Part shown: in pieces, positions 23,504 through 47,989 of the stretch
Layout of the letters: every line of letters begins with the position of its first letter
How positions within the stretch are numbered: position 1 is the stretch's first letter
NCBI GenBank assembly: GCA_044223005.1
Contig: JBGAML010000002.1
Span: forward strand, 266,457 to 330,456
Origin: Candidatus Eiseniibacteriota bacterium
GTDB taxonomy: Bacteria > Eisenbacteria > RBG-16-71-46
Direction: 5' to 3'
Length of the DNA stretch: 64,000 nt
The notes under the pieces: model-generated
Databases searched by the model: none
Told to the model about the DNA's origin: nothing
What the model saw: the letters and a program-made list of their open reading frames with translations, nothing else
Position numbers and translations under genes: made by a program

Positions 23504-23685
23504 GGCGGTCCCCTCGATCCCGATCGGGTGGATGGCGCCGCGATCCTACCATCCGGCGAGGGTTGCCGCGTCGGCGAATCGGGGGTGGCGCTGCCCGAAA
23601 CGCAGCTTGCAATTCGCATTGCGGCAGGGGCCGGGCGGTGCGCCTCGCGGCGATTCCACTGTGATTCCGGGAGCATCCTCTCGTT

Positions 23686-23700
23686 ACAATTGTTCGAACA
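23686..23700. promoter_or_regulatory. AT-rich overlapping palindromes (ACAATTGT / TGTTCGAACA) upstream of the paralogue array; candidate operator/promoter
   Basis: This is an unusually AT-rich patch in a 70% GC background, ~95 nt upstream of the first paralogue's ATG. I have no match to a known binding site. Confidence 0.25.
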
Positions 23701-23794
23701 CGCACATCGTCGGCGCCCCCGGGAGACGCCCGGGCCGCCGTGGGTATGGCCGGGAGCCAGCCCACCTCGTGACCCTCGCCACCCTCGAGGCCCC

Positions 23795-24889
23795 ATGTCC
23801 GGTCGCCATCCCTTAGCCCTGCTCCTCGCCATCGTGTTCGCGGCGCCCGCGTTCGCCGCGGACGGCCTGCCCACCACGGTGACCACGGCGCCGCAGGCCG
23901 CACGCGCGGCGACGACCGTCGACGCCTCGCAGGCGTTCACGTACCAAGGCATGCTCAAGAGCGCCGGGGCGCCGCTCAACGGCACGGCCGACCTGACGTT
24001 CACGCTGAGCGATGCCTCCACGGGGGGAAACATCTTCGGGACGCAGTCGCTGACCACGGCCGTTTCGAACGGACTCTTCACCGTGACGCTGAACGACGCC
24101 GGGCAGTTCCTCGCCACCGCGTTCGACGGTCGCGCGCTCTGGCTCGAGATCGCCGTGCGCAGCCCCGCGGGCTCGGGCGGCTACACCACGCTCACGCCGC
24201 GGCAGGCGCTCAGCGCTGCGCCGATCGCCAGCACGCTGGCGCCCATGGCCGTGATCACCGGAAACAACACGAACTCGGGTGCTGCCGCCCTCGAAGTGAA
24301 TGCGGCCGCCGCGACGGCCGGTGCGCCGGTCGCCGCGTTTCGCGCCGCAGCAGGAAACAACCTCGTTCTGCGCACGCTCTTTCAGGTGCCCACGGCGATT
24401 CAGGGCGACAGTTGGGACGGCGTCGGCGTCGCAGGAGTGACGTGGAACGGGACCGCGGTCCTCGGCAACGCGCTTAGCGGCGGGCTCGCGGGCAAGTTCT
24501 ACGGCGACGTCGACGTGACCGGGAAGGTGAAGTCGGATCGCTGGCAGTCGCGCATCGCGATCAACTCACTCGGGCCGCTCCCGATCACCAGTGCGTCGTT
24601 CTCCACGAAGGGCGGCACGCTGATGCTGAACTACTCGGGCTCGGGCTATTCCAACACTCCCGGTCAGATGATCGGCATGACGGTCACCCTCGACGGCGTG
24701 ACGTTCGTCGACAACACGGGCATCTACGCCAACTCGGCCAGCCAGCACCTCGCGTTCGTGCCCAAGACCTGGGTCCTGAGCAACATCGCCGCCGGCTCGC
24801 ACACGATCTCGTTGAGCACCATGAACGCCGCCACGCACACGGATTCCAACGACATCTTCAACGTCACCGTCACGGAGCTGCCGTGGTGA
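23795..24889 (+). CDS. Secreted paralogue P1 of a novel 364-aa family (conserved N and C modules, variable core)
   Basis: The signal peptide is MSGRHPLALLLAIVFAAPAFAADG. The conserved N module is FTYQGMLKSAGAPLNGTADL...NGLFTVTLND...DGRALWLEIAVRSPAGSG.YTTL.PRQAL. The conserved C module is DRWQ..AINS.GPLP.TSASF...GG.LM..YSGSGYS...IGMTV.LDGVTF.DNTGI.AN.ASQHLAFVPKTW...TDSNDIFNVTVTELPW. Confidence 0.7.
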   Translation: MSGRHPLALLLAIVFAAPAFAADGLPTTVTTAPQAARAATTVDASQAFTYQGMLKSAGAPLNGTADLTFTLSDASTGGNIFGTQSLTTAVSNGLFTVTLNDAGQFLATAFDGRALWLEIAVRSPAGSGGYTTLTPRQALSAAPIASTLAPMAVITGNNTNSGAAALEVNAAAATAGAPVAAFRAAAGNNLVLRTLFQVPTAIQGDSWDGVGVAGVTWNGTAVLGNALSGGLAGKFYGDVDVTGKVKSDRWQSRIAINSLGPLPITSASFSTKGGTLMLNYSGSGYSNTPGQMIGMTVTLDGVTFVDNTGIYANSASQHLAFVPKTWVLSNIAAGSHTISLSTMNAATHTDSNDIFNVTVTELPW

Positions 24890-25974
24890 CCGCGGCGCTG
24901 GCAATGGGCCTCGCGTTCCTCGCGACAGCGGGTCCCGTGACGCCCGGGACGACGGCGCCCGTGCCGACCGCCGCGCCGCAGCAGGCGCGCTCGGCCACCG
25001 CCGTCGACGCGGGGCGTGCGTTCACGTATCAGGGCATGCTCAAGAGCGCCGGGGCGCCGCTCAGTGCGACGGCCGACCTGCAGTGCACGCTCTACGACGG
25101 CGCCACTGCGGGCACCAGCTTCGGGACGCAGACCGTGACCACCACCGTCTCGAACGGGCTCTTCACCGTGACGCTGAACGATGCCAGCCAGTTCACCTCC
25201 ACGGCGTTCGACGGCCGCGCACTCTGGCTCGAGATCGCGGTGCGCAGTCCCGCGGGCAGCGGCGCCTACACGACGCTTTCGCCGCGCCAGGCGCTCTCTG
25301 CCGCGCCGATCGCGGCGACGCTCGCGCCCCAAGCCCGCATCCAAGCCACCTACACGGGCAGCTACAACGCGGGGCTCAATCTCGCAGCCCCGGCCAATAC
25401 CTTCAACCCGACTGCGCTGTCCGTCCTCGCGGGCCCGCGGACCTTCACGTGGCTGACGGACGTTCCGGCCGGCGTCCTGTCGGATACCGAATCGGGATAC
25501 GGAGTGGTCGGGACCACCAACACGGGCACCGGGCTATACGGCCGGACGTTGAATGGCAGCGGTACCGGAACCGCCGGACGCTTCGACGGCGACGTGAGCG
25601 TGAACGGCAAGCTGCTGGTGGACCGCTGGCAGTCGACGATGGCGATCAACTCGGTGGGCCCGCTGCCGCTGACCAGCGCTTCGTTCACGACGCACGGTGG
25701 CCACCTGATGATCACGTACTCGGGATCGGGCTACTCCAGTGTCGCCAGCACGCTGATCGGCATGACCGTCAAGCTCGACGGCGTCACGTTCATCGACAAC
25801 ACGGGCATCCTCGCCAACAACGCCAGCCAGCACCTCGCGTTCGTGCCCAAGACGTGGCTGATGAGCGGCGTTGCCCCGGGATCGCACACGATCGGACTGA
25901 CGCCCCTGAACATCTCCACCCAGACCGACAGCGGCGACATCTTCAACGTCACCGTCACGGAGCTCCCATGGTGA
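24883..25974 (+). CDS. Secreted paralogue P2 of the same family
   Basis: The GTG start overlaps the P1 stop by 7 nt (GTGGTGA). The N and C modules have the same architecture as P1, with a divergent central ~85 aa. Confidence 0.7.
   Translation: MVTAALAMGLAFLATAGPVTPGTTAPVPTAAPQQARSATAVDAGRAFTYQGMLKSAGAPLSATADLQCTLYDGATAGTSFGTQTVTTTVSNGLFTVTLNDASQFTSTAFDGRALWLEIAVRSPAGSGAYTTLSPRQALSAAPIAATLAPQARIQATYTGSYNAGLNLAAPANTFNPTALSVLAGPRTFTWLTDVPAGVLSDTESGYGVVGTTNTGTGLYGRTLNGSGTGTAGRFDGDVSVNGKLLVDRWQSTMAINSVGPLPLTSASFTTHGGHLMITYSGSGYSSVASTLIGMTVKLDGVTFIDNTGILANNASQHLAFVPKTWLMSGVAPGSHTIGLTPLNISTQTDSGDIFNVTVTELPW
25699..25857 (+). repeat. Near-identical 159-nt segment shared by paralogues P2 and P3 (second copy at 26787..26945)
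   Basis: A direct read of both stretches shows identity except for 2 nt (cgtcaag vs gatcaag) across GGCCACCTGATGATCACGTACTCGGGATCGGGCTACTCCAGTGTCGCCAGCACGCTGATCGGCATGAC...GTGCCCAAGACGTGG. The surrounding gene bodies are far more divergent. Confidence 0.7.
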
Positions 25975-27062
25975 ACGCAGTACTCGCAATGGGCCTCGCG
26001 TTTCTCGCGACGGCGGGCCCCGTGACGTCGGGGTCGACGACGGCGCCCGGCCCTGCCGCCGCGCCGCAGCAGGCGCGCGCGACGACCGCCGTCGACGCGG
26101 GGCGTGCGTTCACGTACCAGGGCATGCTCAAGAGCGCCGGGGCGCCGCTCAACGGCACGGTGGATCTGCAGTTCACGCTCTACGACGACCCCGCGGCAGG
26201 TTCCAGCTACGGAACGCACTCCCTGACGACGACGGTTTCGAACGGACTCTTCACCGTGACGCTGAACGATCCGCAGTGGTTCTATTGGTGGGCGTTCGAT
26301 GGCCGTGCGCTCTGGCTTTCGGTGGCGGTACGCAGTCCCGCCGGCAGCGGCGTCTACACGACACTTTCGCCGAGGCAGGCGGTGACTCCCGTGCCGATCG
26401 CGCAGACGCTCGTTCCCCTGGCGCACATCGAGACCGCCGATTCGAGCCCTGAAAATGCGGTGATCAACCTCTCGGCCCCGGCGGGCTTTACCAATCCGAC
26501 GGCGCTCGCCGTCACCGCCGGGCCGTCGATGTTCCACCTGGGGTCGACCGGTCCCGTCGGAGTCGAGGCCGACGTCGCGGCGGGAACCAGCATTCTCGGC
26601 ACCACGGACACGGGCGTCGCGATCCACGGGCGGACGCTGCACGGCGCCGGAACGGGACTCGCCGGGCGCTTCCAGGGTGACGTCTGGGTGTCCGGCAAGA
26701 TGCACGTGGACGGCTGGCAGACGCAGGTGGCGATCAACTCGACCGGCCCGCTCCCACTCACCAGCACGCCGTTCCTGACGCAGGGTGGCCACCTGATGAT
26801 CACGTACTCGGGATCGGGCTACTCCAGTGTCGCCAGCACGCTGATCGGCATGACGATCAAGCTCGACGGCGTCACGTTCATCGACAACACGGGCATCCTC
26901 GCCAACAACGCCAGCCAGCACCTCGCGTTCGTGCCCAAGACGTGGGTGATGAGCAACGTCTCCGCCGGCCTGCACACGCTCGAACTGACACGGCTCAACA
27001 CCTCCACCCAGACCGACAGCGGCGACATCTTCAACGTCACCGTCACGGAGCTCCCATGGTGA
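25968..27062 (+). CDS. Secreted paralogue P3 of the same family
   Basis: The ATG overlaps the P2 stop (ATGGTGA). The C-terminal module is ~85-90% identical to P2; the core is divergent. Confidence 0.7.
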   Translation: MVNAVLAMGLAFLATAGPVTSGSTTAPGPAAAPQQARATTAVDAGRAFTYQGMLKSAGAPLNGTVDLQFTLYDDPAAGSSYGTHSLTTTVSNGLFTVTLNDPQWFYWWAFDGRALWLSVAVRSPAGSGVYTTLSPRQAVTPVPIAQTLVPLAHIETADSSPENAVINLSAPAGFTNPTALAVTAGPSMFHLGSTGPVGVEADVAAGTSILGTTDTGVAIHGRTLHGAGTGLAGRFQGDVWVSGKMHVDGWQTQVAINSTGPLPLTSTPFLTQGGHLMITYSGSGYSSVASTLIGMTIKLDGVTFIDNTGILANNASQHLAFVPKTWVMSNVSAGLHTLELTRLNTSTQTDSGDIFNVTVTELPW

Positions 27063-28147
27063 ATGCAGCGCTGGCAGTGGGCCTCGCGTTTCTCGCGACG
27101 GCCGGCCCCGTGGCCTCGGGGCCCGAGGCGGTGACCGTTCGCACCACCACGCCGCAGGCGGCCCGGGCGGTCACGACCGTCGACGCGACGCACGCGTTCA
27201 CGTACCAGGGCATGCTCAAGAGCGCCGGTGCGCCGCTCAACGCGGTCGCCGAGCTGCAGTTCACGCTCTACGACGACGCGACTGCGGGAAACAACTTCGG
27301 GACGCAGACGTTGACGACGAGCGTCTCGAACGGGCTCTTCACCGTGACGTTGAACGATGCGAACCAGTTCGGAGCCCAGACGTTCGACGGCCGGGCGCTC
27401 TGGCTCGAGATCGCGGTGCGCAGTCCCGCCGGGGCCGGCGTGTACACGACGCTCACGCCGCGCCAGGCGCTCACCGCCGCACCGATCGCCGCCTCGCTGG
27501 CGCCCCTGTCGCGGATCCTGACGACCAACACCAACATGTACACGCCCGCGCTGTACGTCCTGTCGACGCCCGCGACGCCGAGTGGCTCGGCCTACGGCAT
27601 TCATGCGGTGGCCGAGGAGGCCGGTTTCTACACGAGCTTCTACGCCTCAACCGCGATCCAGGGCGACAGCTACGAGGGCCATGGTGTCGCGGGTTCCACG
27701 GGGACCGGCGACGCGATCTTCGGCTATGCGCCCTTTGGCGGACTCGCCGGCAACTTCGTCGGAAATGTGAACATCGCCGGCCAGCTGGTCGTGGATCGCT
27801 GGCAGCCTTGGATCGCGATCAACTCCACCGGCCCGCTGCCACTCACGAGCGCCAGCTTCCAGACGCACGGCGGCACCCTGATGCTCAACTACTCCGGCTC
27901 CGGTTACACGAACGTCGGCGGCACCCAGATCGGCATGACGGTGACGCTCGACGGCATCACGTTCGTCGACAACACCGGCATCGTCGCGAACTCCGCCGGC
28001 CAGCACCTGGCGTTCGTGCCCAAGACGTGGGTGCTGAAGAACATCCCCGCCGGCACGCACACGATCGGGCTGACGAAGCTCAACAACAACACCCAGACCG
28101 ACAGCGGCGACATCTTCAACGTCACCATCACGGAGCTGCCCTTCTGA
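27056..28147 (+). CDS. Secreted paralogue P4 of the same family
   Basis: The ATG overlaps the P3 stop through the identical ATGGTGA junction. It ends ...NVTITELPF. Confidence 0.7.
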   Translation: MVNAALAVGLAFLATAGPVASGPEAVTVRTTTPQAARAVTTVDATHAFTYQGMLKSAGAPLNAVAELQFTLYDDATAGNNFGTQTLTTSVSNGLFTVTLNDANQFGAQTFDGRALWLEIAVRSPAGAGVYTTLTPRQALTAAPIAASLAPLSRILTTNTNMYTPALYVLSTPATPSGSAYGIHAVAEEAGFYTSFYASTAIQGDSYEGHGVAGSTGTGDAIFGYAPFGGLAGNFVGNVNIAGQLVVDRWQPWIAINSTGPLPLTSASFQTHGGTLMLNYSGSGYTNVGGTQIGMTVTLDGITFVDNTGIVANSAGQHLAFVPKTWVLKNIPAGTHTIGLTKLNNNTQTDSGDIFNVTITELPF

Positions 28148-28719
28148 TGAAAACGACCCGCACGTCACTCCGCGCCCCGCTCGCCGGGGCCATGATTCTC
28201 GCGGCCGCGCTCCTGCTGGTGTCCACCCACCCGTCGCACGCTTCGAGCGGCCCCGGCTTCGAGCTCTCGTGGACCCGCGTCGCCAACGGCGGCACGACCA
28301 CTGCGAGCGGCGGCGCCTTCACGCTCTCCGGCACGATCGGCCAGCACGAGCCCGGTACGCAGACGGGCGGCGACTACTCGCTGTCGGGCGGCTTCTGGTA
28401 CGGCGGCGCCGCGCAGCAGGGCGTCGACGTGACGCCCACCACGGGCCCGCGCCACACCGAGTTCGCGCTGCACGGCTTCGTCCGCAATCCCGCGCCGATG
28501 GCCGACCTCACCGTGTCGTACGCCATCGCCGACGGCGCGCCCGCGTCGCTCGAACTGCTCGACGTGGCCGGCCGCCGCGTGGCCGAGACGAGCGCGCTGC
28601 ACCCCGGCACCGGCTCGGTGCGGCTCGAGCCCGCGGGTCGCATCTCGCCCGGGCTCTACTGGCTGCGGCTCAAGCAGGCGGGGAAGAGCGCCACCGCAAA
28701 AGCGGTCCTCGTGCAGTAG
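28147..28719 (+). CDS. Small secreted protein (190 aa) with a T9SS-type CTD, fifth and last gene of the array
   Basis: Its ATG overlaps the P4 stop (ATGA). The signal peptide is MKTTRTSLRAPLAGAMILAAALLLVSTHPSHA. A Gly-rich beta segment SGGAFTLSGTIGQHEPGTQTGGDYSLSGGFWYGG follows. The C-terminus LELLDVAGRRVAE...GLYWLRL is the CTD. Confidence 0.65.
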   Translation: MKTTRTSLRAPLAGAMILAAALLLVSTHPSHASSGPGFELSWTRVANGGTTTASGGAFTLSGTIGQHEPGTQTGGDYSLSGGFWYGGAAQQGVDVTPTTGPRHTEFALHGFVRNPAPMADLTVSYAIADGAPASLELLDVAGRRVAETSALHPGTGSVRLEPAGRISPGLYWLRLKQAGKSATAKAVLVQ

Positions 28720-28753
28720 CCGCAAGCGGTCCGTATTCGCGGCATCCGTCACA

Positions 28754-28796
28754 AGCACCCCGCTCCGGTTCGCCGGAGCGGGGTGCTTACTTTTGG
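28754..28796. terminator. Rho-independent terminator of the 5-gene array
   Basis: AGCACCCCGCTCCGG-ttcg-CCGGAGCGGGGTGCT is a perfect 15-bp stem followed by TACTTTTGG. Confidence 0.6.
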
Positions 28797-28971
28797 TGCG
28801 GGCGCGTCGCGCGCTCGCGCCGCCGTCGCGCCGTCATAAACACGTGCCGGGTGCACACGAGTTTTCAGCCGCTTTCCGATTGTCGGGTGCACCCTGCGCT
28901 CCCTAGCGTGCGCCCCCTGGCCACGACGCCAGCGCTGTTCCCGGATCGAGTCCCCCTCACCGGAGGTGCAG

Positions 28972-31137
28972 ATGGCTCCCCATCCCACTGCCGCCCGGCC
29001 GCGGTCCGTCGTGATGCAGGCACGACGACTCCCGCTCGCCGCACTCGCGCTCATGCTCGTGCCGATCGTCGCGCACGCGTACGACGCCCCCACGCACCAG
29101 GCCATGTCGATCGTGGCCGTGCGTCGCGCCGACTGCAAGGTCGACGACTACCTGAAGAACGAGCTGCTCGTGCCGCAGGGCATCGAGACCACCGCCGGCA
29201 GCAACTCGTTCGTCGATCGGCTGCAGGATGGCGCGCGCGACGAGGACGAGCAGTCGACGCCGCGCCCGCGCAACCACTTCTACAACCCGATCACCGGGAA
29301 CGGGCTCGACGACATCTTCTCGGGCAACTCTTCGCTGCAGTGGGCGTGGGACCATCCGGACAACCAGCAGGACTGGCACGCCGCGCGCGACGCGTACTTC
29401 CGCTTCTTCACCGCCGGCACCAAGGCCGAGCGCACGCAGGCGATGGGAGATGCGTTCTGGGACCTGGGCCACGTGATCCACCTGATCCAGGATCTCGGCC
29501 AGCCGCAACACGTCCGCAACGACGCGCACATCACGCACTTTCCCGGCGCGCCTTTCGAGGACTACTGCAGCATTCGCTACCGCACACCCGAGACCGTGGG
29601 CTCGCTCGGCACCGCGCCGATTCCGCAGCTGGTGCCCGGGCCCGGGCCGTTCGCGAACATCCCGAACAGCTTCTCGGGCTTCTGGGATTCGGGCCAGTAC
29701 CGCGGCCAGGACGACTTCGCCGGCTTCACGCTGGCCCCCGGCCTCGCCGAGTACTCGAACGCGTACTTCATCACCGACGACACCATGTTCGGCACGTTCC
29801 AGCTGGGCGTGCTGCCGCGCGCGGGCATGCCGCCGCTGCAGGTGCGGCTGCGGACGCCGTTCTTCTCGACCAACCACTCGACGAGCGCCAACCATCGCTT
29901 CAACGGCCCGCGGCTCGCCGACACGGACCTCGCGAGCTTCTACCCGGCCACGACGAGCAGCGTGACCGTCTACCGCGGCGGCGAAGGCACCACGGGCGCC
30001 ACGCACTACCTGACGCTCAACACGCGCGGCCCCGGCGGCGCCATCATCCACACCACGCGCAACATCTGCCTGCTGAACGGCGACAACTACATCGGCTTCG
30101 ACGACAACACCTACCAGGCGTACGCCGAGCAGCTGGTGCCGATGGCCGTCAGCTATTCCGCGGGCCTGCTCAACTACTTCTTCCGCGGCAAGCTCGACAT
30201 CGAGGTGCGCTGGATCGAGGCGCAGCAGCAGTACCAGATCACGGTCACCAACCGCTCCGGTGCCGATCTCGGCGCGGGCCAGTGGTCGCTCTACCAGGAC
30301 GACGGCAGCGACAACCGCAGCTCGGTCGGCGCCTCGTTCAACTATCCCGGCACGCTCGCCGACGGCGGCAGCTTCACCGGCACGTTCGCCGCGGCCGAAC
30401 GAAGCGGCGGCTACACGCTGGTCTTCCACGGCACGCTGGGCGACGAGAAGGACTGGGCCGTGGTCGGCAAGCGCTTCGAACTCGTGCGCGTGCTGATCAC
30501 GTGGGATCCGAAGTCGGACCAGGACCTCTACATGTGGGGCCCCGACGGCTCGCTGATCGGCTACTACAGCAAGGTGAGCTCGTACGGCGAACTCGACAAC
30601 GACAACATCGGCGGCACCGGGCCCGAGAACATCACGCTCAAGGACATGCGTGAGGGCAACTACCAGTTCATGATCGATTACTACCGGGACTGGTGGAAGG
30701 AGTACTACTACGACCAGCCCTCGAACACGTGCATCCCGTACGACACGCCGATCAACTACCCGGAGGACTACGGGTACGATCCGTGTTTCGAGCCCACGCC
30801 GATCACGGTGACGGTGAAGACGTATCACAACGCCGCCTCGCCGGTGCGCACGCAGACCTTCACCGCGGTGTGGCCCGACTACGGCTACTACCTGCCCGGC
30901 TCCGGCCTGGGTGAGGGGCAGTTGGACGACGCGTGGGCCGTGGTGCAGACGGTCACGGTCGACGCCGATCGCAACGTGACGATCACCGGCACCACGCCGC
31001 AGACCGCGCCGCCGCCGGCGACGCGTCCGTACGTGCGCGCCGTGGCCGCGTCACCGCCACCGTCCAAGGCCGGTGTGCCCACGACGGTGAACCTGACCAG
31101 CAAAGCCATGGCCGCGAAGCCGACGGGGGTGAAGTGA
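28972..31137 (+). CDS. Secreted zinc-dependent phospholipase C / S1-P1 nuclease superfamily protein with a C-terminal beta-rich domain
   Basis: GGAGG lies 5 nt before the ATG. There is a signal peptide. The motifs YDAPTHQAMS, NHFYNP and HVIHLIQDLGQPQHVRND match the H...D..QP.H zinc-ligand pattern of PLC / P1 nuclease. Confidence 0.6.
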   Translation: MAPHPTAARPRSVVMQARRLPLAALALMLVPIVAHAYDAPTHQAMSIVAVRRADCKVDDYLKNELLVPQGIETTAGSNSFVDRLQDGARDEDEQSTPRPRNHFYNPITGNGLDDIFSGNSSLQWAWDHPDNQQDWHAARDAYFRFFTAGTKAERTQAMGDAFWDLGHVIHLIQDLGQPQHVRNDAHITHFPGAPFEDYCSIRYRTPETVGSLGTAPIPQLVPGPGPFANIPNSFSGFWDSGQYRGQDDFAGFTLAPGLAEYSNAYFITDDTMFGTFQLGVLPRAGMPPLQVRLRTPFFSTNHSTSANHRFNGPRLADTDLASFYPATTSSVTVYRGGEGTTGATHYLTLNTRGPGGAIIHTTRNICLLNGDNYIGFDDNTYQAYAEQLVPMAVSYSAGLLNYFFRGKLDIEVRWIEAQQQYQITVTNRSGADLGAGQWSLYQDDGSDNRSSVGASFNYPGTLADGGSFTGTFAAAERSGGYTLVFHGTLGDEKDWAVVGKRFELVRVLITWDPKSDQDLYMWGPDGSLIGYYSKVSSYGELDNDNIGGTGPENITLKDMREGNYQFMIDYYRDWWKEYYYDQPSNTCIPYDTPINYPEDYGYDPCFEPTPITVTVKTYHNAASPVRTQTFTAVWPDYGYYLPGSGLGEGQLDDAWAVVQTVTVDADRNVTITGTTPQTAPPPATRPYVRAVAASPPPSKAGVPTTVNLTSKAMAAKPTGVK

Positions 31138-32915
31138 TGAACGCCCTGAATCGCTTCTTCCGCGCCGCCACCGATGTGCGCCGCAGCTCGTGGCTGCTCG
31201 CCTCGGTGGTCGTGGTGCTCACGGTGACGCTCGCCGTCGTCGCGAACGCCGCCAACTTCGCCATGACGCTCGCCACCCCGAACCAGACCGCACCTCCCGG
31301 CGGCAACGCCCTCTACACGGGCAGCATCGTCAACACCTCCGGGCACGCGATCACGCTCGACATCCAGGTCGAGTTCCTGACCAGTCCCGAATCCGAACTC
31401 TGGACGCTCGATCTCGCGCCCGAGTTCCTCGCGCTGCAGTTGGAGCTTCCCCCGGGCGGCTACAGTGGGCCGCTCTTCACCGCCGGTTGGGACCCCTCGC
31501 TCACCGGCGGGCTCTACGGCGTCGGCCGGCTCGTGCTGACCGATGCGAACGGAGTGGACGGCGTCGCCGCGGCGTCGTTCACGCTGAGCACGCCGGGCGC
31601 GGGGCCGTTCTGCACGAGCCAGGTGAACTTCCGCGGGCTCGAGAACTCGGTCGGGATCCTCGACTCGCTGGACCACCCGATCGTCGCCAGCGCGAATCCC
31701 GTGAACGGCAGCGTGTCGGTGGGCACCACCGACGGCCACTTCTGGAAGACCGCGCTGATCGCGAAGAACGTGGGCTCGCACGCTTCGCCGTCACTGGTGG
31801 TGGACGCGTTCCAGGCGCCGCACGTCGCCTACTACGACGAAGTGGCGGGCAGGCTCGTGCACGCGACCAACCCCGGCACCGGCTGGGTGAACGAGACGAT
31901 CGACAACGCCTCGGGCGCGGGACGCTCGCCGTCGCTGGCGATCGACCAGCTGGGCCAGCTGCACGTGAGCTACTACGACTCGGCGAAGCGGCAGCTGCGC
32001 TACGCCGCGCGCAGCAACGGCTCGTGGACGCCCGAGGTGGTGGACACGCTGCCCGGCGCTGGCGTGCGTTCGGCGCTGGCCACGGACGAGATCGGGCAGC
32101 CGTACATCGCCTACTACTCCGCCGACGAAGGCAAGCTGCGCCTGGCGCACCGTGCCGGCAACGGCTGGACGACCGAGGTGGTGGACGGCACCGGGCACAC
32201 CGGCCTGGCGCCGTCGCTGCGCTACCACACCGGCACGTTCTGGGTGTCGTACGGCGACTCGACGCCCGGCCACCACGCGCTGCGAATGGCGAGTGGTGTA
32301 CCCGGCGCGTGGAGCGCGGCCACGGTGGATTCGGGCGGGGATTGCGGATCGGCGTCGGTGATGACGCTGGACGGCTTCGACAATCCGCGCATCGGCTACT
32401 GGGATGCCGCGACGCAGACGCTGCGCTACGCGAGCAAGACCGGCCCCGTGTGGATCCTGGAGGACGTGGCCGCCAACTCGGCCGGTGCGATCTCGCTGGC
32501 GCGCGGCACGCACGACGAGCCCGTGTTCAGCTTCGCCGGCAGCACCGACGGCCTGATCCACCTGAGCACGGTGGGCCAGTGCCCCGTCACGATTCCGCTG
32601 TTCGGCGAGCCCACCGGCACCGACGCCACGCTGCCCACGGAGTTCGCGGTGATGGCCGCGCGCCCCAACCCGTTCCGGAGCACGAGCGTGATCACGTTCG
32701 CGAGCCCCGTGCGGGCCGAAGGCTGGGTGCGCGTCTACGACGCCGCCGGCCGCGTGGTGGCCGAACCCCTGCACCGCTTCATCGAGGCCGGCATGACGCA
32801 GGTCACGTGGGACGGCGCGGACCGGTCGGGTCGCAAGCTGCCCGCGGGCACGTACCTCGTACAGGTGCGAGTCGGCGCGAACGTGAAGTCGGCACGGGTG
32901 ACGCTGATTCGGTGA
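31137..32915 (+). CDS. Secreted repeat protein (YY-x-L-YA-x-NG-W-x-E-VVD repeats) with a T9SS-type CTD
   Basis: Its ATG overlaps the previous stop (ATGA). The signal/TM is SSWLLASVVVVLTVTLAVVANA. There are four ~45-aa repeats. The C-terminal RPNPFRSTSVITFASP...GTYLVQV is the CTD. Confidence 0.65.
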   Translation: MNALNRFFRAATDVRRSSWLLASVVVVLTVTLAVVANAANFAMTLATPNQTAPPGGNALYTGSIVNTSGHAITLDIQVEFLTSPESELWTLDLAPEFLALQLELPPGGYSGPLFTAGWDPSLTGGLYGVGRLVLTDANGVDGVAAASFTLSTPGAGPFCTSQVNFRGLENSVGILDSLDHPIVASANPVNGSVSVGTTDGHFWKTALIAKNVGSHASPSLVVDAFQAPHVAYYDEVAGRLVHATNPGTGWVNETIDNASGAGRSPSLAIDQLGQLHVSYYDSAKRQLRYAARSNGSWTPEVVDTLPGAGVRSALATDEIGQPYIAYYSADEGKLRLAHRAGNGWTTEVVDGTGHTGLAPSLRYHTGTFWVSYGDSTPGHHALRMASGVPGAWSAATVDSGGDCGSASVMTLDGFDNPRIGYWDAATQTLRYASKTGPVWILEDVAANSAGAISLARGTHDEPVFSFAGSTDGLIHLSTVGQCPVTIPLFGEPTGTDATLPTEFAVMAARPNPFRSTSVITFASPVRAEGWVRVYDAAGRVVAEPLHRFIEAGMTQVTWDGADRSGRKLPAGTYLVQVRVGANVKSARVTLIR

Positions 32916-32993: not shown

Positions 32994-33483
32994 GGGCCCA
33001 AACCCAAGCCGGTAGGATAGTGCGTCGCACCGTCACCCACCCGCTGTTGGGCGTCCTTATCATCTTCGGGTAGAGTCCCCGCGGCACTGCCAACTACTCC
33101 AACGGCCGCCCGATCTCGCGATGCTCCCAAGACTCAGGGCGATCATTCATACGACCCCGAGGATTTCGGTCGCATGTCGCCCCCAGTCACGGATGGCCGC
33201 AAGCCCAAAGGGCCTATTCGCCCCAAGCCAGCCGCAGCGATGGTCGCCCCCGGCGGCGTCGAGCGAAAATGTCGCCGCGTTGGCTTCATGATTTGGTCGT
33301 CTGACGCGGTCTCCAATCGACCGCCTCGTGGCCATGAGAGGCACCTTCTGGAGGCGGGGCAGATCTTGCCAGTGTGCAGGGGCGACGGGGCATCGCAAAC
33401 GCAAGGTAGCGCTACATTGCCATGCGGCGGTGGGCAAACGGGCTCCGCTCGACTTCCCGGCGGCCCTACGCGGAGGCGTCGCC

Positions 33484-35598
33484 ATGCCCCCGTCCTCTGA
33501 TGTGCTGCTCGACCTCATTGTCGATGCGATAAGGCGAGTGAGGTCAATACGCCAAGATTCGCCCATTGTCTGGCTCGTGATCCCCGTGCTTGCCTGGCTG
33601 TTTGATGCACAGGGCCTCTTTTCAAATCTTCTGAGTGTAATGGAAAACAAGAGGCAAGCCCGAGCTGCGCGAACACTTCTAGCTCACATATACACTGCCG
33701 ACGATATCGATCGCTATACACGACATTATGTCAAACAGCACTATCTGCAGCACGCACCAACGCACTATGACGAGCCACGCGATGCGCGCCAAGGCGTCAA
33801 GGGGGAGCTGTTCGAATACGTGGATCGCTTTGTGACATCGAAGCAACCAGACGCCAAATTTCTGATGATCTTGGCAGACAGTGGCACCGGCAAGTCGTCA
33901 TTCTGCATAAACTATGTCGTCAAGCGCTCGAGACGTCCTCGCCCTGGATGCAAGTGGATATTGGATTCGCTCGGCGACCCCAAATGTCTCGATCGGGTTC
34001 AGGGTGTCGCCGAGCCGGAGAACGCCATTCTGGTCCTTGATGGTCTGGACGAGGATCCCGCGGCACTCGGCCGATTCCTGGAGCGGTGGGCGGAGATCGA
34101 ACGGGCCACCATTCGCTTCCGCCGTGTCGTGGTCACCTGCCGACTACAATTCATTACGACGGGTTCCCAGTTGCCTCATAGGTCGATTGTGGTTCGTCGT
34201 GCTGGCCCTCAGGCACTGGACGATGACCGTAGGTTCTCAGTCGACCACGTGTATATCTCGCCGCTCAGAGACAGGCAAATCAAGCAGTTCATAGACATGA
34301 GCGTACCGTTCTGGCGAAGGAGGGAGCGCAGCGGCGCGATGCGCCTGGTGAAGGCTATCCCACTGCTTAGCGTGCGCCCTATGTTGCTTGGCTATCTGCC
34401 GCACCTCGCCAAACAAGATCCTGACAGAAAATGGAGTACAACGGAGTTGTATAGAGAGTGTATTGAGCAGTGGCTTGCGCGAGAAGTCGATGCAGATGAT
34501 GCGGAATCCGCCGAGAGAAAGCGGCGCCAGTTGTTGGAGCTATCCATGCAGATTGCAGTGAGTATGTGCGTGCCATCGCACGGCTTGTCCTACCGGGCGG
34601 TTGACATAGCGACGACGCCGGCAGATGGCGGTACTCCGATTCCAACTGATGCAGACGCTGCGGGCGGCCAAAGGGCTGCTCACGCGCTGGAGATGCCGCT
34701 CAGAGATGTTGGTCGTAGTCTGTTGGTGCCCGCGAGCGGTGGTGGATTCAAGTTCGCGCATCGCTCGTTTGCCGAGTATTTTGTTGTAGAGGCCGCGCTT
34801 TCCGGCGAGCGGAGGGCGTGGGGGCAAATGAGCGACATGATGAGACTGTTCTTGAGTGAGCGTCTCGAAGCCTATTGGCCTGAGTTGTCGCGTGGCGTGA
34901 GGCTTCAAGGAACTGCGTGGACCCTGGGAGGCGTGGCCGACAATGCAAAGCTGGACATAGTCGTGCCTGAAGATGCGCGCTACGTACTGCTAAGTAGGCT
35001 GCTGGAGTGTGCAGATGCGCTCGGAAGGGCTCATGAGCAATATTATTCCAGCATAAGATTTGCGTGGGGTGACGAGAAGGTGCGCGGGACAGCAGACAAT
35101 GCGGTGCAGGGCGGGGCGGTGAGTATCAGCGGGCGGGCAATCGGAAGCGACTGGTATAGATTCGAGGAAGAGGCGAGCCCTCGCAATGGAAATGAGCCGA
35201 CATTCTGGGTGGATGTGCTGCCACCGCGATGTGAATATGGCTCTGGTACGTTCCAAGTTGGTTGGAACTCTGCGGGTCGTGTGCGACGTGCAATGTTGTA
35301 TGAGTCCGAGGTGGAGTTGCTTGTATCGGGGAGTCAGAAGACGGCAAAGCGTGAGGTGGTTAGGTGGCGGCGAGTAGGGGTCGCTGAACTCTTGTGCAGT
35401 AATGCTCTGGTGTTTGGCGCGTTGCGCGAGAGAACTGCGGCGGGGATGGCGAGCTTCGAGGCCGGAACATTGCGATTCAAGGTGCGAGGCACGGGGCAGG
35501 CGGTCGTCATGAAGGGCGCAACATGCGAAGGTATGGTGTGGGATCCCAGTTCGGGGTCGTATGAGATTCAGCTGTCGGACCCTTCCCACGCCGAGTGA
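33484..35598 (+). CDS. NACHT/STAND-family P-loop NTPase (bacterial NLR-like; candidate antiviral STAND)
   Basis: Walker A is FLMILADSGTGKSSF (aa ~134-139). Walker B is AILVLDGLDE (aa ~181-190). The sensor-1-like motif is RRVVVTCRLQ. The N-terminal region is ~120 aa with one hydrophobic helix (PIVWLVIPVLAWLF). A ~400-aa Trp-rich C-terminal domain is unassigned. GGAGG lies 8 nt before the ATG. Confidence 0.7.
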   Translation: MPPSSDVLLDLIVDAIRRVRSIRQDSPIVWLVIPVLAWLFDAQGLFSNLLSVMENKRQARAARTLLAHIYTADDIDRYTRHYVKQHYLQHAPTHYDEPRDARQGVKGELFEYVDRFVTSKQPDAKFLMILADSGTGKSSFCINYVVKRSRRPRPGCKWILDSLGDPKCLDRVQGVAEPENAILVLDGLDEDPAALGRFLERWAEIERATIRFRRVVVTCRLQFITTGSQLPHRSIVVRRAGPQALDDDRRFSVDHVYISPLRDRQIKQFIDMSVPFWRRRERSGAMRLVKAIPLLSVRPMLLGYLPHLAKQDPDRKWSTTELYRECIEQWLAREVDADDAESAERKRRQLLELSMQIAVSMCVPSHGLSYRAVDIATTPADGGTPIPTDADAAGGQRAAHALEMPLRDVGRSLLVPASGGGFKFAHRSFAEYFVVEAALSGERRAWGQMSDMMRLFLSERLEAYWPELSRGVRLQGTAWTLGGVADNAKLDIVVPEDARYVLLSRLLECADALGRAHEQYYSSIRFAWGDEKVRGTADNAVQGGAVSISGRAIGSDWYRFEEEASPRNGNEPTFWVDVLPPRCEYGSGTFQVGWNSAGRVRRAMLYESEVELLVSGSQKTAKREVVRWRRVGVAELLCSNALVFGALRERTAAGMASFEAGTLRFKVRGTGQAVVMKGATCEGMVWDPSSGSYEIQLSDPSHAE

Positions 35599-35945: not shown

Positions 35946-37742
35946 CTAATTCCTCAGCGTCACCTGCCGCACCCAGACGCCCCGCACGCCCTGCTCCTGG
36001 CCGGCCAGTGCTCGGAACTTGCCGAACACCTCCGTGCCGCGTGATGCGCTGCCAGCCGACACCGGCAGGTCCGCGACGCCGCCGACGCCTCGCAGCTTGT
36101 CCAGCGGGGCGGCGCCGACGCGGGCGTAGCTGATCGGGCGGTCGGGCGAGACCGCGGGCAGCGTTGCGAGCTCGGCTTCGAGTTCGGGGACGGGTTGTGG
36201 GCTCGCCACCACGAGGAAATGCTCGTGGCCGCCGCGGCTGGTCACGACCCAGCCGCTTTCCTTGCCGGCGCGCGTGCCGGGCATTCGCACCGTGGCGCCG
36301 GCGGCGATCGGGTTCTTCTGGTCGAACAGTGGTTGCGGGAACAGCAGGTACGATTCGCCCTTGTCGTCGGCGTTGAGCACGTAGACGTACGCGGGCTGGC
36401 TCGCGCGGAACTCCAGCAGCAGCCGATCTCCGGGCTTCACGGCGTCGCCGTCCACCAGCGCGGTGGTCGAGCCGGCGTCGCCTCGCATCAGCGTCGCGCT
36501 CACGTCGTATGCGACCGGCGCCACTGCCGCAAGCGAAGGTGCGGGCGTCGGCACCTCCGTCGTCCGCGGCCGCAGGCGCGGCCACGCGAGCAGCGCGGCG
36601 ACGGCGACCACCGCCCCGATCGCCAGCGGCAGCGCGAGCTGGCCGCGTCGCGACGCGGTTACCGCGCGCGCGCCGCCCATCGTCCCGGCCGCGCTGCCCG
36701 CGACGGTCGCGTCACGCGCTGCCGCGCCCGCGTCGCGCGCGCCGACCGCCCCGGCGCCCGCATCCGCCACGCACGCCTCCAGCGCCGCGCGCGCGTCGGT
36801 CGCGCTCGCGAACCGCGCCGCCGGAGCTGCCGCCATCAGCCGCTCGATCGCGGCGACCAGCGCTGGCGGCGCACCCGGGGCGTCGGCGGCCAGCGCCACC
36901 GCGGGCCCCGCGGCGGCCTCCGCACGTAACGCCTCCAAAGAAGAAGCCGCGAACGGCGCGCGCCCGGTCAGCGCGCGCCGCAGCGTGACGCCGAGCGCGT
37001 ACAAGTCATCCGAAGCGCACGCGACAGCGCCAAGAAGCCGCGCGGGCGACATGTACGCGGGAGTGCCCGAAAACGGCCGCGCAAGCCCGGCAGCAGAACC
37101 CGCATGCTCCCCGAGCCCGAAGTCGACGAGCACGAAGTGGCCGTCGTCGGTGGCGATCACGTTCGCGGGCTTCACGTCGCGGTGCAGCGCTCCGGCGCCG
37201 TGCACGGCGGCCAGCGCGCGCGCCATCTCGGCGCCCAACTGCGCCACGCGCGCGGGCGCGAGTGCTCCCATGCCGAGCAGCACTTCGAGCGAGGGGCCGC
37301 GCAGGTACTCCATCCAGAACCCGGCGCGGCCGTCGTGTTCGGCGGCGCCGTGCACGGTGACCACGTGCGGATCGCGCACCCGCGCCAGCGCGCGTGCTTC
37401 GTCGAGCATGGTGCCGACGGGCGCTCCGGTGCGTGCGAGCTTCAAGGCGACCTCGCGCCGCAGCGAGGGGTCCCAGGCGCGATACACGCTGCCGTCGGCG
37501 CCTTCGCCGGCCTTCTCCAGCAGCAGCAGCTCGCCCCAGCGGCCGCCCTCGAACAGGCCGCCGTCGTCGGCGCCGTGCTGCAGCGAGCGGTGAAAGTCGG
37601 CGACGCGCGAGAGGTCGTGCAGCGTCCGCACGTGCTCGCGCTGCTTCGCGTCGGCGGCGCCTTCGGCGCGCGCCCAGTCGGTGGGCTCACCGTTGGCGAT
37701 CGACTCGAGCAGTTCCTGCAGTGCGCGTTCGTCAGGCGTCAT
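35946..37742 (-). CDS. Serine/threonine protein kinase with a TM segment and an extracytoplasmic C-terminal domain
   Basis: The kinase motifs are GEGADGSVYRA, VALKL, HRDVKPANV, DFGLG and SPAR. A TM helix LALPLAIGAVVAVAALLAW is present. Its start overlaps the upstream ECF sigma stop by 11 nt. Confidence 0.8.
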   Translation of the reverse strand: MTPDERALQELLESIANGEPTDWARAEGAADAKQREHVRTLHDLSRVADFHRSLQHGADDGGLFEGGRWGELLLLEKAGEGADGSVYRAWDPSLRREVALKLARTGAPVGTMLDEARALARVRDPHVVTVHGAAEHDGRAGFWMEYLRGPSLEVLLGMGALAPARVAQLGAEMARALAAVHGAGALHRDVKPANVIATDDGHFVLVDFGLGEHAGSAAGLARPFSGTPAYMSPARLLGAVACASDDLYALGVTLRRALTGRAPFAASSLEALRAEAAAGPAVALAADAPGAPPALVAAIERLMAAAPAARFASATDARAALEACVADAGAGAVGARDAGAAARDATVAGSAAGTMGGARAVTASRRGQLALPLAIGAVVAVAALLAWPRLRPRTTEVPTPAPSLAAVAPVAYDVSATLMRGDAGSTTALVDGDAVKPGDRLLLEFRASQPAYVYVLNADDKGESYLLFPQPLFDQKNPIAAGATVRMPGTRAGKESGWVVTSRGGHEHFLVVASPQPVPELEAELATLPAVSPDRPISYARVGAAPLDKLRGVGGVADLPVSAGSASRGTEVFGKFRALAGQEQGVRGVWVRQVTLRN

Positions 37743-38334
37743 GTCGCATCGCCTCCGCCAGTCGTCCGAGCGCGCGCGTCACGGCCATGCGCACGGCATC
37801 CCTGCTGTCGCGTCCGGTCATCACGCGGATCTCCTCGTAGTTCCAGTCGAGCTCCACCTTGAGGTGGAGCAGGTGCTGGTCCTCGGGCGAGAGCGTCGTG
37901 AACGCGCGTTCGTATCGCTGCGCGAGGTCGGCGCCGATCGCCAGTTCCAGCGGCGAGGGCCCGGCATCGGGGAGCGAGTCGGGCACTTCACCGGGTCCGG
38001 GACGCCGGTCGGCGTATCGGATCCCATCCCGAATACGATTGAGCACGGCGGAACGAACGTAGGCCTCGAACCCGCCGGGGCCGCGCAGTTCGACCCGGTC
38101 CAGGTTCTCGAACGTCCGCAGCAACGTCTCCTGCACCAGGTCGACGGTGTCGAACAGGCTCCGCGCGCGCGCCGGGATCCGGCCGCTGGCCCAGCGGCGC
38201 AGGCGCGGCAAGTAACGCGCGGCCAGCGACTCCAGCGCATTGCGGTCGCCGTCCTTGGCGCGGCGCAGCAAGCTGGTCGTCGACTCGAGCGCGTCGCCCG
38301 GCGAGGGCGGCAATGGAGCGGATGGAGGGCTCAT
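37732..38334 (-). CDS. ECF-family sigma-70 factor co-transcribed with the Ser/Thr kinase
   Basis: Regions 2 and 4 are present (LESLAARYLPRLRRWASGRI; FTTLSPEDQHLLHLKVELDWNYEEIRVMTGRDSRDAVRMAVTRALGRLAE). Confidence 0.8.
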   Translation of the reverse strand: MSPPSAPLPPSPGDALESTTSLLRRAKDGDRNALESLAARYLPRLRRWASGRIPARARSLFDTVDLVQETLLRTFENLDRVELRGPGGFEAYVRSAVLNRIRDGIRYADRRPGPGEVPDSLPDAGPSPLELAIGADLAQRYERAFTTLSPEDQHLLHLKVELDWNYEEIRVMTGRDSRDAVRMAVTRALGRLAEAMRHDA

Positions 38335-38507
38335 GGCGTCTCGGGGTCCCGGGGTGCTTCCGGCTGGCCGTTCATTGTAGAGGGCGCCACGCCTTGCTGC
38401 GAAGAACTGATCGCGAGCCGGGCCTTGCCAGTGCTAGCTTGCCCGGATTCGCCGCCCGGGCCGGCGTTTCCCGGCAGGCCCGATCATTCCCCGGAGGACC
38501 GCCCGTG

Positions 38508-41500
38508 ATGCGCCTGGCCTGCCTCGCCGCACTGTTCGCGCTGCTGCTGGGTGGCTCGTTCTCACCGTCGGCGGCGCGTCCCAAGGCTCCCGCGGGGCGG
38601 GACACGGTGGTCGTCCAGGCGGAGTGGGACAGCCTGATCGCGCTCCAGTCGGCGCGCCGGTACGCGGTGGTCGACAGCGTGGCGCAGGCGCTGATCGCGC
38701 GGATCGAGGCGTCGCCGCACCCGGACACGCTCGACCTCACGCACGCGCTCTCGTTCGTCGCGGCGGCGCGCTACTCGCAGCGGCTGGTCAACGACGGCAA
38801 GGCGGGCGACGCGATCGAGCGGCTGATCACGCTGCGCGCCCGGCACGTGCCGCCGGGCGAGAAGCTCATGGTGTGGGCCGAGGGCTGGGCGGCGCGTTAC
38901 TTCGACGACGTGGGCCAGCACGACAAGGCGTACGAGCACGCGCGAGGGTTCCTGGACCAGCTCCGGGCGCAGTCGCCCATGGACACGCTGCGCGTCGCGG
39001 CGGCGACCCGCCGCATGGCGCTGGCGCTGCACTTCCTGGGGCGCGAATCCGAGGCGCGCGAGCAGTTCCTGCGCGCGATCGAGATCGCGCGCTCCAAGAC
39101 GATCCCGACGTGGGAAGAGCAGCTCGCCACGCTGGGCGAGTACGGCCAGTACCTGAGCGATCTGGGCGAGTTCGACGCGGCGCGCGACTACCTGAACCGC
39201 GCGCGAGAGATCGGCGAGCACCACAAGGAGGCTGCCGCCCAGCTCGACGAGGTGTTCGGGCGGCTCACCACGCTCGAGCAGCGCGTGGGCAACCTCGCCG
39301 ACGCGGTGGACCTGGCGCAGCGCTCGTACGAGCTGACCCGCGTGCGCTTCGGCGAGAATGCGGCGCCGACGCTGCGGGCGCGCGTGCGGCTGGCGTACCG
39401 GATCTCCGACCTGGGCGATCACGCCGAGGCGCTGCGGCGGCTGCGCGAGATCGCGCCGGTCATGGCGGAGCAGATCGGCCGCACCAACCCGCAGGTGATC
39501 AACGTGCGCATCTCGGCGCTCGAGGACGCTGCTGCGGTGGGCGACACGACCGGCATGCGCGCCGAGCTGGCGGCGCTCTGGCCGATCGTCATGTCGACGG
39601 CGACGCCGCTCTCCAACGCCACCTACCTGCACGCGATGGGCTCGGTGGTCGCGCGATTGCGCGGCGACGAACGCGCCGCATGGGATTCGCTCGAAGTGGC
39701 GGTGCGCGGCATCTGGCCGGAACGCACGCGCTGGGGCGGCCGCCTCGCCGATCTCGCGAGCGAGGAGGCGGTGCTGCTGGCGGGGCCCGGCGACCGCGAC
39801 CGCGCGGAGCAGCTCTTCGCGCGCATCGACACGCTGACGCGCGAAACGAGCGCGCGCGCGGCGGCGGAGTGGCCGCACTGGCTCGAGTCGCGCGCGGGAC
39901 TCGAGGCGCGGCTGGGGCTCGCGGACTCGGCGTGGACGCACGCGCTGCAAGCGGCATCGCTGCAGCGCGAACGGCTTCGCTACCAGGCCTACGCGCTCTC
40001 CGACCACCAGGCGGTGCAGCTGGCCGAGCAGTCGGTCACCTCGGGCGACGTGCTGGACCAGCTGGCGAGCGCGGGCGATCCGGCGCGCGCGGCGGCAGCG
40101 TGGGAGCAGCAGATCCGCTGGCGCGGGCTGGTGCGCGAAGAGGTGACGTCGCGGCGCCTCGCGGCGTGGCAGGCGGCGGACACGGCGGTGGCGGGAGCGC
40201 ATGCGCGCTGGCTCGCGGCGCAGCGTTCGCTCGCGCAGCTCGTGGTCTCGGGTGCGGCGCACCCCGACGATCCGGCTACGGCGGAGCGCTTCGCGCAGGC
40301 GCGCGCGGCGGCCGACGCGGCCGAACAGCAGATGGGCCGCGCGGTGGGCGGCGCTTCGGTCGACACGGTGACGCTGACGCACGTGCTCTCGCACCTCTCG
40401 CCGCGGCAGGCGCTGGTCGGCTTCGCCACCGCGGGCACGGGTCGCGACGCGCGCACGCTGGGCGCGTTCGTCGCCGTGGCGGGCGGCACGCCGCGCTGGG
40501 TGACGCTGGGCGACGAGGGCGCGCTGGGCGACGCGATCGCGGCGTGGACGGCCGCGCTCGCGACGCCACCGTCGGGCGCGCCGGCCGCGATCCGCGCGGC
40601 GGAGCGGGCGTGCCGCGCGAAGGGTGCCGTGGTGCGCGAGAAGCTCTGGGCGCCTGTGCTGCGCGCGCTGGGCGACGTGACGGACGTGTTCGTGGTGCCC
40701 GAGGCCTCGACGTGGAACGTGCCGTGGCTCGCACTGCCGGTGGGCGAGGCGGGCTACGTGGCCGACGCGCCCTACGTGGTGCACCTGCTCAACGCCGAGC
40801 GCGAGCTGCTGCGGCCGTCGCTGCCCGCGAAGGGCGGGCTGCTCGCGGTGGGCGATCCGGATTTCGACCTGACGCCGGCGGCGGCCGACACGAGCCACGC
40901 CGCGACCCGCTCGGGTGTGACGGGCTGGCCGTGCGCCGACGGACGCCCGGCGCGGCTGGAATCGCTGCCCGCGGCGCGTGCCGAGGTGCAGGCGATCGCG
41001 GCGCTCTGGCCCGTGCGCGCGGGCGCGTCCGAGCTGCGCGTGGGAAATCGCGCCGACGAAGCGGACTTCAAGCGCGAGGCGCCGGGCCGCGCGGTGATCC
41101 ACCTCGCGACGCACGGCATCGTGCTCAGCGACACGTGCGTGGCGGTCGGCAGCACGGCGCTGCGCGGTGTGGGCGGTGTGGCCGCGCTCGCCGCGCCGTC
41201 GCAGTCGCCGAAGCGCGCGCCGGGCGCGAGCGCCGCCGCGCCGCGTGCCTCGGCGCCGCGACAGGTGCCGGGGCACGTGTGGCTCGCGTTCGCGGGCGCC
41301 AACCACGCGGCCGACGGCGCGCACGACGAGAACGAGGGCCTGCTTACCGCCGAGGAGGTGGCGACGCTCGACCTCGCGGGCACCGACTGGGTCGTGCTCT
41401 CGGCGTGTCATTCGGGCGAGGGCGAGACGTGGCTGCGCGAGGGCCAGTCGGGCATGCGCCGCGCGTTCCACCTTGCGGGCGTGCGCACGGTGATCGCGAG

Positions 41501-41687: not shown

Positions 41688-41800
41688 CCGCGCGGCGGCT
41701 CGGCCCCCGTGTTCGCTCCGGGCGGGCGGGACGTAGGGAGAACGCGAGCCCATCCGCGCGCGGTGCGTGGGTGGTCCGACCCACCCTCGAGGAGCGCCCC

Positions 41801-47844: not shown

Positions 47845-47989
47845 CGCGGAAGAGTCCGTGTTGCCGGCCCCGCGATGCAACGAACGTTCGCGTCAATTCC
47901 GAGTTTCGACACGCAAACGTTGCGCTCGACTGGGGTCGCGTTCGCCCGCGCTGAACGCGCGGTACGTGCGGGGCGTGTATCGTGTCGCC

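Follow-up and report, generated by a model that had tools for sequence, protein, structure and literature searches.

Within a 64,000-nucleotide stretch of the Candidatus Eiseniibacteriota contig JBGAML010000002.1 (positions 266,457 to 330,456, here called the window), the segment 23795-28719 is filled by five plus-strand genes, P1 to P5, which are packed together by stop/start overlaps. On balance, we favour the explanation that this operon encodes a cell-surface fibre system composed of the P1-P4 fibres and the partner protein P5. We consider it likely that P1-P4 are trimeric surface fibres with a TNF/C1q-like head. P5 carries a domain which we call GGFW and a C-terminal domain (CTD) resembling those of type IX secretion system (T9SS) cargo. 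That it anchors or exports the fibres, which have no CTD of their own, is a plausible proposal, but one that we hold with slightly less than even confidence.

Predicted folds of the fibre proteins and of P5

P2, P3 and P4 are 56-65% identical to P1. The identity between the copies is 72-82% in the N module (approximately residues 47-150), 67-83% in the C module (approximately residues 245-364) and 25-50% in residues 151-244. An AlphaFold2 (AF2) monomer model of P1, built on 22 homologues, had a predicted local distance difference test (pLDDT) score above 90 at residues 46-140 and 245-364. The former region was modelled as a six-strand β-sandwich and the latter as a ten-strand jelly roll which superposes on TNF or C1q domains, in agreement with the fold that a first-pass annotation of the window had suggested for the C module. 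A Foldseek search against viral models returned phage fibres and collagen/C1q proteins. The middle was poorly modelled, as would be expected for an intertwined stalk that folds only in the oligomer.

Sequence comparisons did not place these proteins in any family. No match to Pfam, NCBIfam or PHROG was found for P1-P4, Peptidase_S74 (PF13884) included, and the C module matched no Pfam or NCBIfam model at E <1, C1q and TNF among them. A PDB profile search gave a best E of 0.85 for the C module, and nothing below E 0.1 was obtained in PDB sequence-profile searches of the N module, the C module or the GGFW family, so that sequence searches yielded no solved relative for any of the three. The earlier statement that neither module can be assigned to a named family is upheld, since no curated family covers the N or the C module.

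P5 consists of a signal peptide, the GGFW domain with its three GG-aromatic-x-L repeats, a linker and a C-terminal domain. Residues 105-190, at the extreme C-terminus, form a seven-strand immunoglobulin-like (Ig-like) sandwich in the predicted fold, and the best fold matches of this sandwich are solved T9SS CTDs. The architecture of type A T9SS CTDs was compared according to the published description (PMC11285876).

Distribution of the N and C modules

The search with P1 returned about 18 full-length relatives and more than 100 further proteins sharing only the N module (approximately 27-40% of the query). The latter are secreted and fibre-like, and many of them end in Peptidase_S74, a domain that acts as a chaperone in trimeric fibres, and bear the name "tail fiber domain-containing protein". 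The named N-module matches belong to Phycisphaerae, Verrucomicrobiota, Planctomycetes and Eisenbacteria.

When a C-module profile was run alone against 1.84 billion representatives, the module was detected in 1,162 clusters, 676 of them below 1e-10. It lies almost always at the extreme C-terminus, in proteins of 100 to 1,764 aa whose stalks differ: a Limisphaerales protein combines the N module, FG-GAP repeats and the C module, and other proteins have long β-helical stalks. Some proteins of about 380 aa from outside the window (P0133 and P0135) consist of three tandem C modules and may be single-chain pseudo-trimers, as expected of a domain working as a trimer. The N-terminus of P0133 is lipoprotein-like. 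A scan of species-representative genomes with an eight-sequence C-module alignment found the family in four Candidatus Eisenbacteria metagenome-assembled genomes (MAGs) and one Limisphaerales MAG.

Conserved pairing of the fibre gene with a GGFW protein

Six distinct Eisenbacteria-type homologue loci were compared (L001 and L006 belong to one contig); in each of them, a gene for a GGFW protein comes next after the fibre gene, at a distance of 0-50 nt. The P5 homologues encoded there are approximately 40-56% identical to P5 (53% at L001) or are shorter proteins sharing its N-terminal domain. No other neighbouring gene was conserved between the homologous loci, except through CTDs. Judged from these loci, the basic conserved unit consists of one fibre gene plus P5, with P5 as a conserved partner and not an add-on.

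A GGFW profile made from seven P5-type domains retrieved 790 proteins, mostly of 90-105 aa. The typical member comprises a signal peptide, the domain and the tail YLPL(V/I)LR(NY), and the few named ones come from Chloroflexi (Anaerolineae, Chloroflexia). At two loci of such stand-alone GGFW proteins, the gene located 10 nt upstream encodes a protein beginning with an N module of the P1-P4 type. This linkage was examined in 80 metagenome loci fetched by the GGFW profile, among which 44 domains were testable because 1,500 nt or more of sequence lay upstream. An N-module open reading frame (ORF) on the same strand ends 57-160 nt before the GGFW domain in 34 of these 44 loci, a spacing which means that this ORF ends directly before the signal peptide of the partner. 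None of the fibres at these 34 loci has a C module, and Peptidase_S74 was found in 4 of the 10 sampled. Since the GGFW-linked fibres lack the C module and their heads differ, the partner tracks the constant N module and not the variable head.

The fibre gene and its small partner thus constitute an uncurated two-gene module present in at least four bacterial phyla. As far as sequence comparison goes, three sizeable families lack a curated model: that of the N module, that of the TNF/C1q-like C module with more than 1,100 clusters, and that of the GGFW partner with about 800 proteins. Two consecutive fibre-GGFW pairs each were observed in a Phycisphaerae contig (L097, 1635-5697) and in another metagenome contig (L090, 591-5950); the module has accordingly been duplicated as a pair elsewhere, whereas only the fibre gene was multiplied in the window. 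In a Verrucomicrobiota locus (L099, 674-5782), genes for an N-module fibre of 535 aa, a reprolysin/M43-like metallopeptidase of 358 aa, a GGFW protein of 190 aa and a second N-module fibre of 593 aa were observed, the protease gene being located inside the fibre-GGFW module.

Variable C-termini of the partner proteins

Most stand-alone GGFW proteins, including some named Chloroflexi ones, carry the YLP tail, which NCBIfam describes as a "YLP-box putative sorting motif". The YLP-box models NF050076 and NF053834 were matched by 26 and 18, respectively, of 42 aligned GGFW relatives. P5 has no C-terminal YLPL(V/I)LR tail and ends in the CTD; only a YLP remnant of P5 ("GVDV", "LVDVP") aligns with the YLP tail.

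The tail of the partner differs between lineages. Eisenbacteria partners end in a CTD, Phycisphaerae partners in an extension of about 60 aa that contains two Asp/Gly-rich loops, and Verrucomicrobiota partners in a different domain of about 80 aa. The Phycisphaerae extension looks dockerin-like by eye only, and Pfam gave no match for it at E ≤0.01. On one contig (L002), a C-module fibre is paired with a YLP-tailed partner, which indicates that the partner tails are interchangeable.

Evolution of the four-copy array

The first-pass annotation described the middle regions of P1-P4 as essentially unalignable and hypervariable. The former description is too strong: the middles can be aligned with only 3-residue indels at the identity given above, they keep the Gly-rich pattern G.GV.G.T..G ... 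AG.F.G.V.V.G, and they split into two subtypes, P1/P4 and P2/P3. The comparison of nonsynonymous and synonymous substitution rates (dN and dS) in core and scaffold, which had been proposed as a check, did not reveal any nonsynonymous excess: dN/dS in the middle is 0.33-0.81, with dS of 0.64-2.2 against 0.16-0.60 in the flanks. Because dS is also raised in the middle, the contrast between middle and flanks does not result from amino-acid selection alone. Between P1 and its closest homologue, the orthologue P0002 from another sample, conservation across the three parts is 0.76, 0.73 (middle) and 0.74.

The N and C modules of P1-P4 are closer to one another than to their homologues in other genomes. 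The corresponding values for the middles are 0.24-0.50 among the paralogues and 0.33-0.44 to homologues in other genomes. P2 and P3 share a conversion tract within the C module (approximately aa 271-330) with 92-99% nucleotide identity and an identical run of 89 nt, the surroundings being 78-86% identical. On the simplest reading, P1-P4 are old paralogues in which the flanks were homogenised by gene conversion and the weakly constrained stalk escaped it. The "hypervariable core" mostly reflects concerted evolution of the sequences that flank a stalk under loose constraint.

Copy number and gene order vary in related genomes, as the proposed search for such variation brought out. All Eisenbacteria-type loci examined have a single fibre gene. 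The short contig L101 of a relative, to which the strain of L102 is near-identical, contains two or more copies: first the end of a fibre gene, then a P1-type copy and last a P5 homologue. The P1-type copy is thus the last one in L101 and the first one in the window. Single copies elsewhere and the different copy order in L101 indicate that the array is a lineage-specific, rearranging expansion.

Operon organization and expression signals

The array recognized in the first pass is real: its secreted paralogues form a tightly coupled operon, in which the fifth gene bears a CTD (Table 1). The overlaps GTGGTGA, ATGGTGA and ATGGTGA were confirmed at the junctions of the fibre genes; at the P4/P5 junction the sequence is TGATG with a 1-nt overlap, and not ATGA as had been given. 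Each of P2, P3 and P4 is in the −1 frame relative to the preceding gene. By sequence reading, GGAG is located 5 nt upstream of each internal start, within the conserved final codons ACG GAG CTx CCx TGG TGA, so that the C-terminal T-E-L-P-W motif doubles as the ribosome-binding site of the next gene. In the same way, GAGG was read 4 nt upstream of the P1 start codon. A −1 frameshift fusion of P1-P4 was considered and rejected, as the junctions lack a slippery heptamer but contain GGAG and a start codon. A longer P4 starting from GTG at 26942 was also rejected, because in P2 a stop codon immediately precedes the start.

No σ70-like promoter was detected in the region upstream of P1, and Rfam gave no matches in the window. 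The terminator said to close the unit was found, at 28753-28788 in one delimitation and at 28753-28798 in another. Two fibre ORFs, P2 and the extended P4 ORF, were listed by a composition screen with a third-position GC of 0.87-0.90; this high value is the same as that of the surrounding genes of the window, which has about 70% GC.

Table 1 Coordinates of the operon and of other ORFs with CTDs in the window
Feature	Position	Strand	Description
Upstream intergenic region	23504..23794	+	Presumed promoter site
P1, 364 aa	23795..24889	+	ATG start; classical signal peptide, N module 23933-24238, Gly-rich stalk, C module 24515-24886
P2, 363 aa	24883..25974	+	GTG start over P1 stop (GTGGTGA); N module 25018-25323, C module 25600-25971
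P3, 364 aa	25968..27062	+	ATGGTGA overlap with P2; N module 26106-26411, C module 26688-27059
P4, 363 aa	27056..28147	+	ATGGTGA overlap with P3; N module 27194-27499, C module 27773-28144
P5, 190 aa	28147..28719	+	TGATG overlap with P4; signal peptide, ~60-aa GGFW domain 28243-28431, linker, predicted C-terminal β-sandwich aa 105-190 (28459-28716)
Intrinsic terminator	28753..28798	+	16-bp stem (12 G-C pairs), 4-nt loop TTCG, T-run
FlgD_ig or Por_Secre_tail-like CTD ORF	224-3061	−	
FlgD_ig or Por_Secre_tail-like CTD ORF	~3280-4573	+	
FlgD_ig or Por_Secre_tail-like CTD ORF	7977-10973	+	
FlgD_ig or Por_Secre_tail-like CTD ORF	30933-32915	+	
FlgD_ig or Por_Secre_tail-like CTD ORF	41771-44551	+	
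FlgD_ig or Por_Secre_tail-like CTD ORF	44699-45745	+	
FlgD_ig or Por_Secre_tail-like CTD ORF	55668-58598	−	

Other features of the window

Besides P5, seven ORFs with FlgD_ig or Por_Secre_tail-like CTDs were found, among them an Endonuclease I protein and Rax2/DUF5122 β-propeller proteins, and the density of putative T9SS-type cargo in the window is very high. Counted less strictly, about eight ORFs besides P5 have similar CTDs at their ends. The GC content of the region at about 33.3-35.9 kb is 0.59, compared with about 0.70 elsewhere. The product of its one long ORF (33328-35598, plus strand) contains a Walker A motif (ILADSGTGKSSF) as well as a Walker B-like one (LVLDGLDE) and resembles an NTPase of the STAND/NACHT type; the region may be an acquired island. 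A Ser/Thr kinase with DUF4384, a σ factor of the extracytoplasmic function (ECF) type and a TPR-CHAT protein of 1,124 aa are encoded together at 35946-41687, and a second pair of an ECF σ factor and a kinase-TPR protein is located at 4830-8374. Weak matches to family-B DNA polymerase and RNase H-like exonuclease (E ~1e-7) were obtained with the ORF at 47807-50338 (plus strand).

Discussion

In the mechanism that we propose, P1-P4 would be exported by Sec, and the C-terminal TNF/C1q-like head would nucleate the trimer and probably bind a ligand such as a glycan. The N module would be the docking end, binding the GGFW domain of P5, and the poorly conserved middle would form the Gly-rich stalk between the docking end and the head. 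The CTD of P5 would then direct the assembly into the T9SS route and attach it to the outer membrane. The GGAG within the T-E-L-P-W codons, together with the stop/start overlap, couples translation of the successive genes. The array itself arose by tandem duplication of the fibre gene; gene conversion keeps the N and C modules alike, and the stalks have diverged.

Several observations weigh against this mechanism. The T9SS-type CTD which the first-pass annotation assigned to P5 holds by fold, but the sequence scores are below the curated cut-offs (19.8 against 23 bits for TIGR04183, E 5.6e-4, and 13.5 against 27 for PF18962). No T9SS core genes were detected among the ORFs of the window that were scanned. 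We did not find any paper on T9SS in Eisenbacteria, nor one on the YLP-box, and to our knowledge there is no precedent for a CTD-less protein being exported together with a CTD-bearing partner. The signal peptides attributed to all four fibre proteins differ in quality when judged by eye: that of P1 is classical (MSGRH...AFA|AD), whereas the N-termini of P2-P4, MV(T/N)A(A/V)LA(M/V)GLAFLATAG, contain no basic residue and are plausible but atypical. The AF2 model of the GGFW domain is of low confidence (pLDDT 35-47). N-module fibres without a GGFW neighbour were found at two loci (L008 and L095), and the fibre-GGFW pairing is accordingly frequent but not obligatory.

The order of a fibre gene followed by a gene for a small protein is also that of phages, in which tail-fibre assembly proteins are encoded just downstream of the fibre genes. 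P5 and the other small GGFW proteins could thus be chaperone-like assembly factors of the fibres, or terminal tip or cap subunits, rather than anchors. The three GG-aromatic-x-L repeats could match a three-fold axis, and 40 of the 42 GGFW proteins match the NCBIfam model NF058579 (CPR_pilus_PamT) locally, with a best E of 3e-6. PamT has been proposed as a pilin of the tip from which assembly is nucleated (bioRxiv 10.64898/2026.03.03.709456). However, these matches are far below the 240-bit cut-off (14.7 bits for P5) and cover only the first ~70 positions, signal peptide included. The partner follows the constant N module rather than the variable heads, and its signal peptide, together with a C-terminal signal for sorting or anchoring that is specific to the lineage, fits a surface-resident component better than a transient chaperone. 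We therefore regard an assembly or tip role as unlikely. The match between the GGFW proteins and PamT may reflect real distant homology or may be driven by the signal peptide and the Gly-rich composition. A prophage remnant or a toxin/immunity cassette, for which the resemblance of the folds to phage fibres could speak, is most improbable: tblastn of P1 against 50,697 phage records and the PHROG search gave no match, no toxin or immunity domain was found, the chromosomal neighbours are ordinary ones (histidine kinase, MgtC, a TPR protein, CTD proteins) and all five proteins have N-terminal signal peptides, with the reservation made above for P2-P4. A prophage origin was dropped on the tblastn result.

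Two other alternatives concern the array of four genes. The first-pass annotation regarded it as a repertoire of diversified binders, in which the variable core would be the determinant of specificity under positive selection. Four paralogues with conserved flanks and strongly diverged middles, which are as distant from one another as from homologues in other genomes, would be in agreement with such a repertoire, as would the different copy number and order in L101. Positive selection may also have acted in a burst shortly after the copies arose, the record consisting of only four, saturated sequences. Nevertheless, dN/dS in the middle is below 1 with dS raised as well, P1 and its orthologue conserve the middle as well as the flanks, and it is in the flanks that conversion is seen. 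The Gly-rich middle is stalk-like and poorly modelled and the head is conserved, whereas trimeric fibres usually bind their ligands with the head. Moreover, no reverse transcriptase was found among the ~40 ORFs of the window that were scanned. The insert is on these grounds not supported as a diversifying specificity element, and we consider a binder repertoire quite improbable. The paralogues might instead co-assemble as heterotrimers like the A, B and C chains of C1q, which are tandemly encoded, with translational coupling supplying the chains in matched amounts. This possibility is compatible with the TNF/C1q-like fold of the head, with the tight coupling of the genes and with the similarity that the copies retain in the N and C modules, through which the chains would probably assemble. 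It is nonetheless very improbable, since the fibre gene is present in a single copy in nearly all related genomes, where homotrimers must work, and since four is not a multiple of three.

Beyond the fibre system that we favour for this operon, the N module and the GGFW domain might be a general docking pair, with a role like that of cohesin and dockerin, which hangs interchangeable trimeric fibres on the cells of at least four phyla; the partner would carry the sorting signal of the local envelope, and the Eisenbacteria CTD would act in trans, so that the 190-aa partner would bring fibres devoid of a CTD through the type IX system and tether them. This generalization is tentative and, in our judgement, rather doubtful. 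If it were true, it would explain surface decoration in many uncultured Chloroflexi, Planctomycetota, Verrucomicrobiota and Eisenbacteria, and a type IX signal working in trans would be part of it. Apart from this, the four-copy array, with its homogenised flanks and diverged stalks, is a compact example of concerted evolution.

Comparison with known systems

Among the closest known systems are the Peptidase_S74 (PF13884) "tail fiber domain-containing proteins" of Planctomycetota, Verrucomicrobiota and Chloroflexi. In these, the N module directly follows the signal peptide (45-59% identity over ~100 aa) and the Gly-rich stalk is similar; the small GGFW partner gene is often present as well. 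P1-P4 differ from them in ending in the TNF/C1q-like head and not in the self-cleaving S74 chaperone. Filaments with a C1q-like head are also formed by BclA and F-BclA of the Bacillus cereus group, on the exosporium and at the tips of Ena fibres. In contrast to BclA, P1-P4 have no collagen GXY stalk, no detectable sequence similarity and a different N-terminal attachment domain, while their phylum has cargo signals of the T9SS type and a partner gene is dedicated to them. As analogues of the head, the TNF-like lectins of Burkholderia (the N-terminal domain of BC2L-C) and Photorhabdus laumondii (PDB 9ib6) can be named (PMC3164656, PMC12914763). The C module has no sequence similarity to these lectins and ends a fibre, whereas the lectins are soluble; a lectin role of the head is possible only by analogy with their sugar binding.

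P5 shares the C-terminal seven-strand Ig-like sandwich with T9SS type A cargo such as RgpB, mirolase and NucA. In P5, however, the CTD scores below the cut-off and is located on a 190-aa partner and not on the large proteins that would have to be exported. The stand-alone relatives of P5 are similar to the NCBIfam YLP-box proteins (NF050076, NF053834) in that they carry the YLP tail after the same GGFW domain, in place of which P5 has the CTD. Neither T9SS cargo nor a trimeric surface fibre bearing a TNF/C1q-like head is a new kind of protein. What is new here are the three uncurated families, the two-gene linkage across phyla and the location of the sorting signal on the small partner and not on the fibre.

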